Virus record (IMG/VR): IMGVR_UViG_3300028394_000038
Source of the DNA: a virus
DNA length: 64,000 nt
Reading direction: 5' to 3' (one strand)
Part shown: positions 504 to 2,797 of the stretch, piece by piece
Numbering within the stretch: the stretch's first letter is position 1
Layout: each line of letters begins with the position of its first letter
Program-made: the position numbers and the translations under genes
Notes under the pieces: model-generated
The model's database searches: none
What the model saw: the letters and a program-made list of their open reading frames with translations, nothing else
Told to the model about the DNA's origin: nothing

Positions 504-1212
504 ATTTATAATCGAATCATGGAGTCAGAAATACAAAAAGAGTATTAACTGCTCGCATCCTAAAGGCTTTAGTCAACGTGCTCACTGTGCCGGCAGAAAG
601 AAACACAACGAAAGTGTTGAAATGGAAATGGTCTGCCCTGATTGCAACATGTGTGAATCCCATGGCAATCTTAGTGAAATTAAAAAAGGTGCCAAAGACA
701 GCAACGGCTTTACTAAATGTTGGTCCGGATATCATGCCGCAGGTACAAAGAAAGGTAAGAACGGTTCAGTACGTAACTGTGTAAAGAACGAAAGCACAGA
801 GCTAGAAGAAGAGTTTGATCTTATTGAATCGATTATATCCAACCTAGCTTTACGTAATGGTGTTAACGAAGATGCTGTCTGGGAAGATTTAGAAACACTC
901 ACAGACGATGAGCTATATGTGTTTGCTGTTACACAACCAGTTAATGAAGATTGGCAGAAAGTTAACAAACACGATAAGACTTCGGGCATGAGTCAAAAGG
1001 CTGTCAATGCCTATCGTAGAGAAAATCCAGGTAGCAAACTAAAAACTGCCGTAACGACTAAACCTAGTAAACTAAAAAGAGGTAGCAAAAGTGCCAAGCG
1101 TCGATCAAGTTATTGTTCTAGATCCGCTGGACAAAAACGTATGCATCATATAGATTGTTCAAAGACTCCAGATAAGGCAATCTGTGCGGCACGTCGTCGT
1201 TGGAACTGTTAA
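490..1212 (+). CDS. Modular basic/Cys-rich protein, probable head-packaged polyprotein
   Basis: Start moved to ATG 490 (MRASEFIIE). Contains several short Cys/His/Lys-rich modules separated by xxE sites. Confidence 0.7.
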   Translation: MRASEFIIESWSQKYKKSINCSHPKGFSQRAHCAGRKKHNESVEMEMVCPDCNMCESHGNLSEIKKGAKDSNGFTKCWSGYHAAGTKKGKNGSVRNCVKNESTELEEEFDLIESIISNLALRNGVNEDAVWEDLETLTDDELYVFAVTQPVNEDWQKVNKHDKTSGMSQKAVNAYRRENPGSKLKTAVTTKPSKLKRGSKSAKRRSSYCSRSAGQKRMHHIDCSKTPDKAICAARRRWNC

Positions 1213-1973
1213 TGCGAGCAAAAGAGTTCCAGCCAAAAAAACTAGTTATCTTTGATATAGATGACACGCTGGTTCATACACAAACTAAAGTCCACGTGGT
1301 CAAAGACGGACAGGTAACTAAAGAACTTAACAGTCATGAGTTTACACACTATAAACTACAACCGGGAGAACAGTTTGATTTTGAGAACTTTCGTAACGCA
1401 CATGACTTTTTCCACAAAAGTAAACCGATCATTCCAATGATGAATCAACTCAAGCAAGACATCGCTACTGGTAACAAAGTAGTAATGGTAACTGCTCGTG
1501 CTGACTTTGATGATAAAGAGCTATTCTTAGATACATTCCGCAAGTATGGTGTAGACATGGCAAAAGTTCATGTTTATCGTGCAGGCAATATGACTGGCAA
1601 GATTCAAACAGAAGAAAAGAAAAAAATTATTATACGTAACTTGTTAGACAAGGACATTTATACTAAAGCCATAATGTATGATGATGCTGTTCCTAACTTA
1701 GAATCATTTGTAGAACTTAAGAAAGAATATCCAAAGACCAAGTTCTATGCCTGGCATGTTAGCTTAGAGGGCAAAGCAAGCGAATATCAACGTACCGATG
1801 AAAATTTTGCTGATGGAAAGCACCCAGAAGATAAAGGTGATGCTAAACGTCACGGCATTAACACTAAAGCATCAGTAAGCAGTTTACGTAAAACTGCTAA
1901 ACAAGGTGGCCGTAAAGGTCAACTAGCACACTGGTTAGCAAATATGAAAGCAGGGCGAGCAAAGAAACATTAA
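1212..1973 (+). CDS. HAD-superfamily phosphatase with basic C-terminal module
   Basis: HAD motif I LVIFDIDDTL, motif II VTAR, motif IV MYDD. ATG 1212 overlaps the upstream TAA. Starts MRAKEF. Confidence 0.8.
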   Translation: MRAKEFQPKKLVIFDIDDTLVHTQTKVHVVKDGQVTKELNSHEFTHYKLQPGEQFDFENFRNAHDFFHKSKPIIPMMNQLKQDIATGNKVVMVTARADFDDKELFLDTFRKYGVDMAKVHVYRAGNMTGKIQTEEKKKIIIRNLLDKDIYTKAIMYDDAVPNLESFVELKKEYPKTKFYAWHVSLEGKASEYQRTDENFADGKHPEDKGDAKRHGINTKASVSSLRKTAKQGGRKGQLAHWLANMKAGRAKKH

Positions 1974-1975
1974 AG

Positions 1976-2083
1976 AACACACTACCTTAGGACCAGTACT
2001 CGTTACTGACTCAAGTGTGCGCCGGCTGCTGGCGCAGGACGGCCCGATTCGCTACCGGGAATCCTGAAAGTGAGCATTTTTTT
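1976..2083 (+). ncRNA. Candidate structured non-coding RNA (multi-stem, possible pseudoknot)
   Basis: GC-rich island in AT-rich DNA. Stems CACACT/AGTGTG, CAGTA/TACTG, GCGCC/GGCGC, CAGGA/TCCTG and CCCG/CGGG, followed by T7. Family not recognised. Confidence 0.55.
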
Positions 2084-2098
2084 ACGGCTAAATATTAG

Positions 2099-2797
2099 AT
2101 GATTATATTATATACGCTAATAGTAACACATATCACAATTGTCTGCGTTACCCTGTTCCTACATAGAGGGCAAGCGCATAAGGGATTTGTTTTTAATCCT
2201 GTACTAGAACACTTTATGCGCTTCTGGTTATGGCTAACAACCGGAATGGTTACTAAGCAGTGGGTAGCTATACATCGAAAACATCACAGATTTAGTGACG
2301 AACCCGGTGATCCTCATAGTCCGCATGTATATGGTATATGGCATGTATTATTTAAAGGTGCAGGATTGTATCATTCTGCAAGTAAAGACGCTGAAATGAT
2401 CCAACAATACGGTGTAGGCACACCCGATGATTGGATTGAACGCAACGTGTACACCCAACACAGTCGCCTGGGCATTCTCCTAATGTTAGTTATAAACTTA
2501 TTGTTATTTGGGCCGTTAGGCCTTATAGTGTGGGGTGTACAAATGATATGGATACCATTCTGGGCCGCTGGTGTTATCAATGGAGTCGGACATTGGGTTG
2601 GGTATCGTAACGGCGAAACAAAGGATCAAAGCCGCAATATTAGCCCTTGGGGTATTATTATCGGCGGTGAAGAGCTACATAATAATCATCACCTTAATCC
2701 AGCTAATCCTAAACTAAGCAGAAGTTGGTTTGAGTTTGACATGGGTTGGATGTGGTTTACCATATTTAAAACGCTTAGACTAGCTAAACTTAGATAA
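2099..2797 (+). CDS. Membrane fatty-acid (acyl-CoA delta-9 type) desaturase
   Basis: Three His boxes (HRGQAH, HRKHH, HNNHH), DPHSP, hydrophobic segments, C-terminal WFEFDMGW. Confidence 0.92.
   Translation: MIILYTLIVTHITIVCVTLFLHRGQAHKGFVFNPVLEHFMRFWLWLTTGMVTKQWVAIHRKHHRFSDEPGDPHSPHVYGIWHVLFKGAGLYHSASKDAEMIQQYGVGTPDDWIERNVYTQHSRLGILLMLVINLLLFGPLGLIVWGVQMIWIPFWAAGVINGVGHWVGYRNGETKDQSRNISPWGIIIGGEELHNNHHLNPANPKLSRSWFEFDMGWMWFTIFKTLRLAKLR

Follow-up and report, generated by a model that had tools for sequence, protein, structure and literature searches.

A pseudoknotted RNA family of freshwater jumbo phages with conserved loops complementary to helices 69 and 70 of 23S rRNA: a candidate anti-ribosomal RNA

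The DNA analyzed here, referred to below as the window, is a 64-kb stretch of the IMG/VR virus record IMGVR_UViG_3300028394_000038, which is 152.8 kb in length and has an estimated completeness of 42%. A structured RNA of about 105 nt lies at positions 1970-2078 on the plus strand, between a HAD-like open reading frame (ORF) and a fatty-acid desaturase gene (Table 1). The intergenic gap that carries it, between the upstream stop codon and the next ATG, is 125 nt long, and its GC content is 0.52-0.55 compared with about 0.40 around it. The original prediction, made from the letters of this DNA, had described a multi-stem RNA in a long and GC-rich gap. Both properties of the gap were confirmed, and all of the helices named there are present in the window sequence at the coordinates given. 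Read from 5' to 3', the RNA consists of the flank UAAAGAAC, the helix P1 around an invariant loop CCUUAGGAC and an optional hairpin P2, the hairpin P3, a long hairpin P4 and the 3' tail AAAGUGAGCA. The minimum free energy of the single sequence was no better than that of its shuffles (z = -0.5 on the plus strand and -1.3 on the minus strand). Because these z-scores are at chance level, the window sequence alone gives the RNA no statistical support, which comes instead from its homologues.

Table 1. Positions of the RNA, its parts and its neighbors in the window.
Feature	Position	Strand	Remarks
HAD-like ORF	1200-1973		upstream of the RNA; Pfam match
5' flank UAAAGAAC, conserved	1971-1978	+	overlaps the end of the HAD-like ORF, whose stop codon is 1971-1973
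P1, 5' strand CACACU	1978-1983	+	pairs with 2014-2019
L1, invariant loop (CU)ACCUUAGGACC	1982-1994	+	exact reverse complement of E. coli 23S 1921-1933
P1-enclosed loop ACCTTAGGAC(C)	1984-1994	+	read from the window sequence
P2, optional hairpin CAGUA-CUCGU-UACUG	1994-2008	+	CAGTA 1994-1998 / TACTG 2004-2008
P1, 3' strand AGUGUG	2014-2019	+	pairs with 1978-1983
P3, hairpin CGCC/GGCG	2020-2034	+	CGCC 2020-2023 with GGCG 2031-2034
L3, 7-nt loop of P3, GGCUGCU	2024-2030	+	pairs with the 3' tail
P4, hairpin	2035-2066	+	outer stem CAGGA 2035-2039 / UCCUG 2062-2066; inner stem CCCG/CGGG
L4, loop ATTCGCTAC	2047-2055	+	terminal loop of P4
3' tail AAAGUGAGCA (DNA AAAGTGAGCA)	2067-2076	+	AGU(G)AGC part is the second helix of the H-type pseudoknot with L3
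Pseudoknot pairs, L3-tail	2025-2075, 2026-2074, 2027-2073, 2028-2071, 2029-2070, 2030-2069	+	G2072 bulged
U7 run	2077-2083	+	adjoins the 3' side of the pseudoknot; possible 3' end
TAAATA, late-promoter-like box	2089-2094	+	before the desaturase ATG (2099); part of the next gene, not of the RNA
Fatty-acid desaturase	2099-2797		downstream of the RNA; Pfam match

Relatives of both flanking proteins are abundant in IMG/VR and include near-complete records of 320-367 kb, which places the phage in a jumbo-phage family of freshwater-type metagenomes. BLAST of the RNA element against 160 loci of these relatives gave about 20 distinct homologues, whose position relative to the desaturase gene was variable. 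A covariance model (CM) was built from 20 homologues and was supplied with a core structure drawn by hand, because RNAalifold on a plain MAFFT alignment recovered P3 only, insertions and deletions in P1, P2 and P4 misaligning the remainder. The element of the window matched this CM with 101.6 bits (E 7e-26), as the only match in the window and in the whole 152.8-kb record, and CM matches scored 100 bits and more. The 160 loci held 46 matches, all co-oriented with the flanking genes. Exactly one match was found in nine of ten related large records (270-367 kb), among them seven of the eight rated at least 92% complete by CheckV; the near-complete genome G008 had none. All 99 viral loci searched from the first IMG/VR pattern scan were CM matches. 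In total, at least 311 IMG/VR loci carry the RNA, with at least 252 distinct sequences. By sequence comparison, they constitute a new family of structured RNAs of 80-110 nt, of which each genome has a single copy, in a large group of jumbo phages from freshwater (relatives of 320-370 kb).

BLAST against GenBank phages with the 1.6-kb region or with the element alone gave only chance matches of 19-28 nt, and no cultured phage carrying the RNA was found there. A pattern scan of genome contigs gave 18 matches, 16 of them due to chance and two real, the latter on contigs binned with Lishizhenia and Haliscomenobacter MAGs. Since viral contigs have the very same promoters as those around the Haliscomenobacter copy (L304), this contig is probably a phage contig caught in the bin rather than a marker of the host. 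Both contigs are most likely binned phage contigs.

In 172 distinct aligned sequences the order of the parts is (U)UAAGAAC, P1, P3, P4, AAA and the tail GUGAGCA. Most homologues have the (U)UAAGAAC-like sequence 5' of P1, including those with an ORF that enters the RNA and translates it as sense codons. P1 has 5-6 bp, and its loop consists of the invariant CCUUAGGAC with P2 inserted in about three quarters of the members; P2 is missing from roughly one quarter of the aligned family. P3 has 4-5 bp and a loop of 7 nt, L3, which is usually GGCUGCU. P4, a long hairpin, is interrupted by an internal loop and ends in a conserved loop, L4. The CCUUAGG of L1 is invariant in the seed alignment of 20 sequences, whose members were collected without fixing L1. 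The pattern scans did fix L1, so that its invariance rests on the smaller set obtained by BLAST and CM search.

The paired regions of the RNA covary. Over 11 modelled pairs in 97 distinct sequences, 93.1% of the cells were paired, compared with 65.1% when partners were shuffled and 23-47% when they were slid; 299 cells carried double changes, and the covariation score was 0.69 versus 0.19. For the structure of 17 pairs that includes the pseudoknot, the values were 92.5% paired versus 70.5% shuffled and 28-49% slid. The three modelled pairs of P1 occur as CG, UA, AU and GC and are paired in 93-97% of the sequences, and the stem of P3 (GC, CG, AU and GU) in 99%. The outer stem of P4 also covaries (85-87% paired), and the inner pairs that close L4 are paired in 97-98% with the types GC, AU, CG and UA. 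Paired columns held 156 G-U or U-G combinations versus 45 A-C or C-A, and therefore the plus strand is the RNA strand.

Two pseudoknots had been suggested for the tail in the original prediction, one with the loop of P3 and the other with TTCGCT in L4. The former is proven by covariation. The latter is rejected because L4 is replaced by unrelated loops in other lineages while the tail is unchanged. A rescan anchored on L1 plus L4, by which L3 and the tail were freed from the search pattern, listed 260 distinct instances, 98 of which were flagged as non-canonical for L3 or GUGAGCA. In about one third of these 98 the sole change was the base after GUGAGC; genuine changes of L3 or tail were present in 60 loci. 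Compensatory L3/tail variants included GGGUGCU/GUGACCA, GCCUGCU/GUGAGGA, GACUGCU/GUGAGU and GGCUACU/AGUAGCA. Other loci had L3 and tail sequences unrelated to these yet complementary to each other: GACCACU/AGUGGU, UGCCUACA/UGUAGG, UGCCCCCA/UGGGGG, GUUCUCCCUG/CAGGGAGA, GGGAACCC/GGGUUC and CUGCCGCUU/AGCGGC. In a CM alignment that included the variants, one pseudoknot pair was GC in 81 sequences, CG in 5, AU in 2 and GU in 2, and another was CG in 76, GC in 10 and UG in 1. The coupled changes of L3 and tail and the formal covariation count together establish an H-type pseudoknot in which P4 sits in the connecting loop. Comparative analysis demonstrates that the RNA is real and that it folds as P1 (with L1, with or without P2), P3, a long P4 and the pseudoknot. 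Homologues and their covariation had been proposed as a check in the original prediction; at least 311 loci were found, with covariation far above that of the shuffled and slid controls. A pseudoknotted fold with such covariation is also too complex for a simple terminator, as had been argued there.

None of the known RNA classes that we considered accounts for this fold. The search of the 64-kb window with Rfam 15 at gathering thresholds gave no match, and permissive filters on positions 1900-2150 gave one chance match (E=9.4) outside the element. ARAGORN found no tRNA or tmRNA in the window. The RNA therefore keeps its description as unassigned and as something other than a tRNA cloverleaf; P1, moreover, closes only L1 and P2 and not all of the arms. 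A viral tRNA-like structure was rejected since the bases after the tail vary (UU, CU, AA, UA and others) and no CCA is present. Known self-cleaving ribozymes (hammerhead, twister, twister-sister, pistol, hatchet and HDV-like) had no Rfam match at E<=10, and the CUGA- and GAAA-like strings of the window are not conserved in the homologues. A group I intron is incompatible with a total length of 80-110 nt, with an L1 that is fully Watson-Crick to rRNA and with the lack of any Rfam intron match. A guide RNA of the C/D-box or H/ACA type was rejected as well, because the 172 aligned sequences contain no conserved boxes and the GCA end of the tail is paired in the pseudoknot.

The genomic context was scored wherever the flanking DNA sufficed, in 229 distinct instances. 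In 180 of them, an ORF of 80 codons or more lay upstream and ended between -39 and +14 nt of L1. Of the upstream ORFs, 33 enter the RNA and are closed by the UAG of CCUUAGG, and the stop codons of most others lie 6-16 nt before it; the upstream ORFs are of many unrelated kinds. On the downstream side, TAAATA was found within 50 nt in 70 instances, as in the window, and a sigma70-like TTGACA-N17-TATAAT within 80 nt in 52, followed by AGGAG. A run of at least four U within 10 nt of the tail was present in only 68 instances, so that the U7 run of the window is not a defining part of the RNA. For the same reason, and because ten unpaired or pseudoknotted bases separate P4 from the U-run, an intrinsic terminator was rejected. 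Some instances (L035 and L256) have a separate canonical terminator further downstream. In relatives, the RNA lies upstream of the desaturase gene, downstream of it or kilobases away, and no protein gene was constantly linked to the RNA among the instances examined. The RNA is the last part of a transcription unit; the next gene is variable and is usually preceded by a promoter or another terminator. A riboswitch in the 5' leader of the desaturase gene, which was one option of the original prediction, is therefore excluded, and among its options a small RNA fits best. Transcription of the RNA would accompany that of the upstream ORF, whatever its kind, or follow immediately after it.

The unpaired parts of the RNA resemble rRNA in antisense. 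The comparison was made with a real E. coli rrn operon, and rRNA was examined after the conserved unpaired parts had been recognized as antisense-like, which introduces a look-elsewhere effect that is small relative to the joint probability of the matches. L1 (CUACCUUAGGACC) is complementary at all 13 positions to 23S 1921-1933 of E. coli, a segment that comprises the 3' strand of helix 69 and the linker to helix 70. When the 114-nt stretch at 1970-2083 was shuffled, an rRNA match of 13 nt was reached in 0 of 200 trials. In relatives, the exact match of L1 is up to 15 nt long (1916-1933) and extends into P2. GUUAC, the reverse complement of 23S 1910-1914, is present in 40 of 55 distinct P2 segments, and the alignment score of P2 to antisense helix 69 was 5.4 versus 2.2+-1.3 for shuffles. 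At the level of sequence, these results show P2 as a diverged antisense copy of helix 69.

L4 is of four alternative kinds across the family, which we designate A, B, C and D. Type A, (A)UUCGCUAC(C), matches 23S 1929-1937 in antisense as a perfect 9-mer. The L4 of the window is of this type (AUUCGCUAC), and the exact match of 9 nt is formed by UUCGCUACC at 2048-2056. Type D, ACGCCAUUC (variant UACGCCAG), is a perfect 9-mer as well, the reverse complement of 23S 1968-1976. In our own alignment, type C (GGGAAU) pairs with 23S 1938-1943 and type B (UCGUGC) with 23S 1964-1969, by 6 bp each. The strands of helix 70 in E. coli 23S were derived here from the complementarity as 1933-1943 and 1966-1976, and the 23S positions of pseudouridines 1911, 1915 and 1917, of m5U1939 and of m5C1962 are consistent with them. 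The 5' strand of helix 70 is matched perfectly by L4 type A and more weakly by type C, and the 3' strand perfectly by type D and more weakly by type B. All of the L4 target sites lie directly 3' of the L1 target, and the targets of L1 and L4-A overlap by 2-5 nt.

By direct calculation, an 11-mer match is expected 0.001 times by chance in 4.6 kb of rRNA, and each 9-mer about 2e-4 times per 60-nt neighborhood. The matches of L4 types A and D are independent of one another and of L1. Those of types B and C are weak on their own, with chance probabilities of about 0.015 and 0.06. The calculated duplex energies are -17.7 to -23.1 kcal/mol for L1, -14.4 kcal/mol for L4-A and -15.6 kcal/mol for L4-D. 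Covarying pairs surround the L1 and L4 loops, so the significant complementarity lies in unpaired parts of the conserved fold (13 nt in L1 and 9 nt each in L4-A and L4-D, within 23S 1921-1976). E. coli and 18 of 41 sampled genomes from another phylum have the same 22-nt target, GGUCCUAAGGUAGCGAAAUUCC; the other sampled genomes gave no 22-nt match, which missing rRNA in draft assemblies would explain. Such conservation of the rRNA target would account for an L1 that is invariant across phages while the stems diverge freely. No sense target of L1 beyond chance was found in the phage's own record.

L3 also matches 16S 519-527 (the 530 loop) and, with two G-U pairs, 23S 1902-1910. These matches were rejected as a defining feature and are regarded as incidental, since L3 changes together with the tail and some lineages have unrelated sequences in its place. 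Whole-length RNAduplex comparison with rRNA was uninformative, as it ignores intramolecular structure and shuffles therefore gave similar energies, although the best duplex was located in or beside 23S 1750-1960 for about half of the 70 sequences. The antisense relation of the invariant loops to 23S rRNA had no place in the original prediction.

Our preferred reading, which is tentative and could well prove wrong, is that the RNA acts in trans by base pairing with domain IV of the host 23S rRNA. The exposed loops L1 and L4 would pair with this domain, and the complementary bases are placed in loops as in known loop-initiated antisense RNAs. In the mature 50S subunit the target bases are base-paired and buried at the subunit interface, and therefore the likely target would be 23S rRNA that is still nascent, or a 50S subunit that is either free or in a late precursor (pre-50S) state. 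Assembly studies have shown that helices 68-71 dock very late in the formation of the 50S subunit, and the helix 69-70 segment, a late-folding part, is the core of intersubunit bridge B2a. Pairing might be expected to trap the large subunits of the host, to cause cleavage of the hybrid, or to block their maturation or subunit joining. The benefit to the phage is a matter of speculation; it might be a shut-off of new host ribosome production, or a marking or tethering of 50S subunits. With slightly more reserve, we suggest a pseudoknotted "anti-ribosomal RNA" that would hybridize with helix 69-70 of the host and thereby stall or redirect the maturation or joining of large subunits. Its P4 loop would serve as an exchangeable second "address" that has been retargeted several times to either strand of helix 70, and such an RNA would probably have arisen from a captured and inverted fragment of rDNA. 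Several points stand against pairing in trans. The target is buried and would be accessible only in rRNA that is immature or unfolded. Given the great abundance of ribosomes, an effect by stoichiometry seems demanding. The match of L4 types B and C to helix 70 is limited to 6 bp, and the overlap of 2-5 nt between the L1 and L4-A targets is a further difficulty. The complementarity could also be a relic of an inverted rDNA fragment that was kept for contact with a protein or for a tertiary contact.

This last objection leads to the explanation that we consider the most serious alternative, although it is rather unlikely. L1 would be the binding site of a phage or host protein or of a ligand, or a catalytic center, the RNA being an RNP scaffold, an aptamer or a new self-cleaving ribozyme, and the complementarity to rRNA would merely reflect descent from captured, inverted host 23S rDNA. 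Aptamers and ribozymes typically have such a compact pseudoknotted fold, in which the stems covary and a few unpaired bases are invariant, and the weak rRNA matches of L4 types B and C are in keeping with this explanation. The likeness of P2 to antisense helix 69 looks like homology and would explain the complementarity without a function. However, all four kinds of L4, different as they are, find their complements in a single rRNA helix, on one strand or the other, beside the L1 target. Simple descent does not predict this mapping, because types D and B, the latter with the weaker match to helix 70, are not contiguous with the L1/P2 segment. Binding of a protein or ligand, or catalysis, is further opposed by the variable downstream gene, usually set apart by a promoter, with no constantly linked protein gene, and by the failure of any known ribozyme or riboswitch model to match even at E<=10.

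It is improbable that the RNA is a cis-acting element at the 3' end of the upstream transcript, such as a pseudoknot terminator, an exonuclease-blocking stabilizer or both, that closes the transcription unit. Its place right after a stop codon, seen in 180 of the 229 instances, the promoter or U-run that comes next in many of them and, in the window, the U7 run immediately after the 3' strand of the pseudoknot would suit such a role. On the other hand, most instances lack the U-run, and some have a canonical terminator of their own further downstream. A genome of 320-370 kb has many operon ends and yet contains one copy of the RNA, which together with the rarity of an adjoining U-run argues against a general terminator. 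Moreover, termination or stability needs neither an invariant loop of 9-13 nt nor alternative conserved L4 loops.

A link to translation is far less probable still. The RNA would then be a tRNA-like pseudoknot, with C-CUUAGGA-C of L1 as an anticodon-like loop (UAG) and the tail ..GAGC-A as acceptor and discriminator, or a recoding or termination signal. CUUAGGA does have the shape of an anticodon loop (U33 and a purine at 37), a pseudoknot at the 3' end is known from the tRNA-like structures of plant viruses, and the 33 upstream ORFs that stop at the UAG of L1, with most others ending 6-16 nt before it, might be seen in this light. However, the stop codons of the motif close two of the three frames, and ORF ends at this site are expected in a compact genome; the upstream ORFs are also unrelated. 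ARAGORN recognized no tRNA or tmRNA, the tail is followed by no CCA or conserved 3' end, L1 in most members is a loop of at least 9 nt or holds the P2 insertion, and the loops of P4 are not T-loops. The least credible explanation is an element that acts as DNA, a nuclease target or decoy, proposed on the grounds that the minus strand holds up to 18 bp of an rDNA homing site (L1917-L1931, used by LAGLIDADG homing endonucleases and group I introns) and that the reverse complement of L1 and the start of P2 reads ATAACGGTCCTAAGGTAG in some relatives, which we take to be the core of the I-CeuI site; but covariation with G-U pairs and the pseudoknot point to selection on the plus-strand RNA rather than the DNA duplex, the part of the site present in most members is no longer than 10-13 bp, and no endonuclease gene is linked.

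Phages take over ribosomes with proteins. To our knowledge, no natural RNA of bacteria addresses rRNA by base pairing, and rRNA guide RNAs belong to archaea and eukaryotes. If trans-acting pairing with 23S rRNA is correct, this RNA would be the first natural RNA of a bacterial virus known to target rRNA by base pairing, and binding, if it occurs, would represent a new mode of host take-over or of control of ribosome biogenesis. Hundreds of environmental jumbo-phage genomes carry, in single copy, an RNA with invariant loops that are antisense to a ribosomal region of outstanding conservation and central function. Because the 22-nt target is identical in E. coli, pairing can be tested directly without the natural host. 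Should the rRNA idea fail, a well-supported new class of structured RNA with a proven pseudoknot would still be worth adding to Rfam.

A search of the literature on phage RNAs complementary to 23S rRNA gave nothing relevant. The IMG/VR-wide screen of Fremin et al. 2023 (PMC10690425) reported 8,495 unnamed structured RNA candidates ("DNAVirus_X"), which come from the same data source and are the same kind of object; the RNA described here may be among them. The main text of that paper (PMC10690425) contains no mention of jumbo phages, of a desaturase or of complementarity to rRNA. In its fold, the phage RNA is comparable to preQ1-III and SAM-II-like aptamers and to the pseudoknots of tmRNA, in which a hairpin loop pairs with a downstream tail and an extra hairpin lies between, but it has no sequence or CM similarity to them and no constant downstream gene. 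A different likeness is to group I introns at LSU L1925/L1926, which we take to be the Tetrahymena-type insertion site: CUACCUU-AGGACC is what the P10 and P1 guide for that junction would read. Unlike these introns, the phage RNA is only 80-110 nt long and has no P3-P9 core, no splice-site G-U wobble and no flanking exons.

Closer parallels are found among small RNAs that pair with other RNAs. The snR191/U19-type snoRNAs are eukaryotic guide RNAs of the helix 69 region. In archaea, the H/ACA RNA sR-h45 of Haloferax is a guide RNA for this region (PMC7075261). The phage RNA resembles sR-h45 and snR191/U19 as a small RNA with bipartite complementarity to LSU rRNA around helix 69. Unlike them, it has no C/D boxes, H/ACA pocket or ACA box, and no partner of the Cbf5 or fibrillarin type is in sight. 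Its complementarity is continuous instead of flanking an unpaired target base, and it is encoded by a phage with a bacterial host. With CopA/CopT, RNA I/RNA II and many Hfq-independent sRNAs, the phage RNA shares perfect complementarity of 9-13 nt in the loops of stable hairpins, small size, a non-coding nature and a mobile genome. It differs from CopA/CopT and RNA I/RNA II in that its partner, judged by complementarity, would be the host 23S rRNA and not an mRNA or a replication primer, and in that two loops, held by an H-type pseudoknot core, would address neighboring strands of that rRNA.

In relatives carrying the pseudoknotted RNA, which in the window lies upstream of the desaturase gene, the RNA overlaps the end of the preceding open reading frame (ORF). 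Among 229 distinct instances with enough flanking DNA, the UAG within the invariant P1 loop, CCUUAGG, serves as the stop codon of an upstream ORF that crosses P1 in 33, and this ORF is often the desaturase itself. In most of the remaining instances, the stop is the UAA or UAG of the conserved 5' flank. The motif therefore closes two of the three reading frames, and the ORF and the RNA share sequence.

The region 3' of the RNA contains expression signals (see table). Strong sigma70-type promoters (TTGACA-N17-TATACT) are followed by TTTTAGGAG Shine-Dalgarno sequences in relatives, and both elements are nearly the same in distant contigs. The box ACGG(A/C)TAAATA, seen in the window within ACGGCTAAATATTAG-ATG, is found again in several relatives at an equal distance after the RNA; it looks like a late promoter of this phage family preceding the next gene. 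In some relatives, a separate canonical terminator, GAAAGCCCC-UUGC-GGGGCUUUUUUU, lies about 15 nt past the RNA and replaces the directly adjoining U-run.

Coordinates and examples of features in and around the RNA
Feature	Location	Context
ORF/RNA overlap	e.g. L064:3640-3700, L075:2780-2840	Relatives
ACGGCTAAATATTAG-ATG	2084-2101	Window
Sigma70-type promoter and Shine-Dalgarno sequence	e.g. L257, L265, L278, L235, L263, L304	Downstream of RNA
ACGG(A/C)TAAATA box	L002, L003, L033, L084, L087, L280, L346	After RNA
Separate canonical terminator	L035:2153-2190; also L256	Downstream of RNA
L3 with 16S rRNA complementarity	2024-2030	Window and relatives
5' flank and P1 5' strand resembling 23S antisense	1971-1983	Window and relatives

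The promoter and Shine-Dalgarno sequences argue for hosts with canonical sigma70/SD usage. Two RNA-bearing contigs from metagenome-assembled genomes are labelled Bacteroidota (L293, Lishizhenia; L304, Haliscomenobacter) and are probably binned phage contigs. Such usage fits poorly with these labels. The only near-complete relative without a match at E<=0.1 to the covariance model built from 20 homologues is G008 (the record behind L138; 335 kb, CheckV 95%), in which the RNA is either absent or present in a divergent form.

Further parts of the RNA resemble the antisense of rRNA. In its common form, L3 taken together with the bases that close it, CGGCUGCUG(G), is a perfect antisense match to 16S rRNA 519-527 in the 530 loop, and it can also pair with 23S 1902-1910 (two G-U pairs, -17.6 kcal/mol). 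These matches were judged incidental because L3 covaries with the 3' tail. In the majority lineage the rRNA match could matter, for example in switching between the pseudoknot and rRNA pairing. The 5' flank and P1 5' strand (UAAGAACACAC-CUACC) resemble the antisense of 23S 1929-1945 (CAAGGAAUUUCGCUACC), of which the ..UUCGCUACC part is present again in the type A loop of P4. This likeness and its repeat hint that the whole element may have derived from an inverted rDNA fragment with internal duplication.
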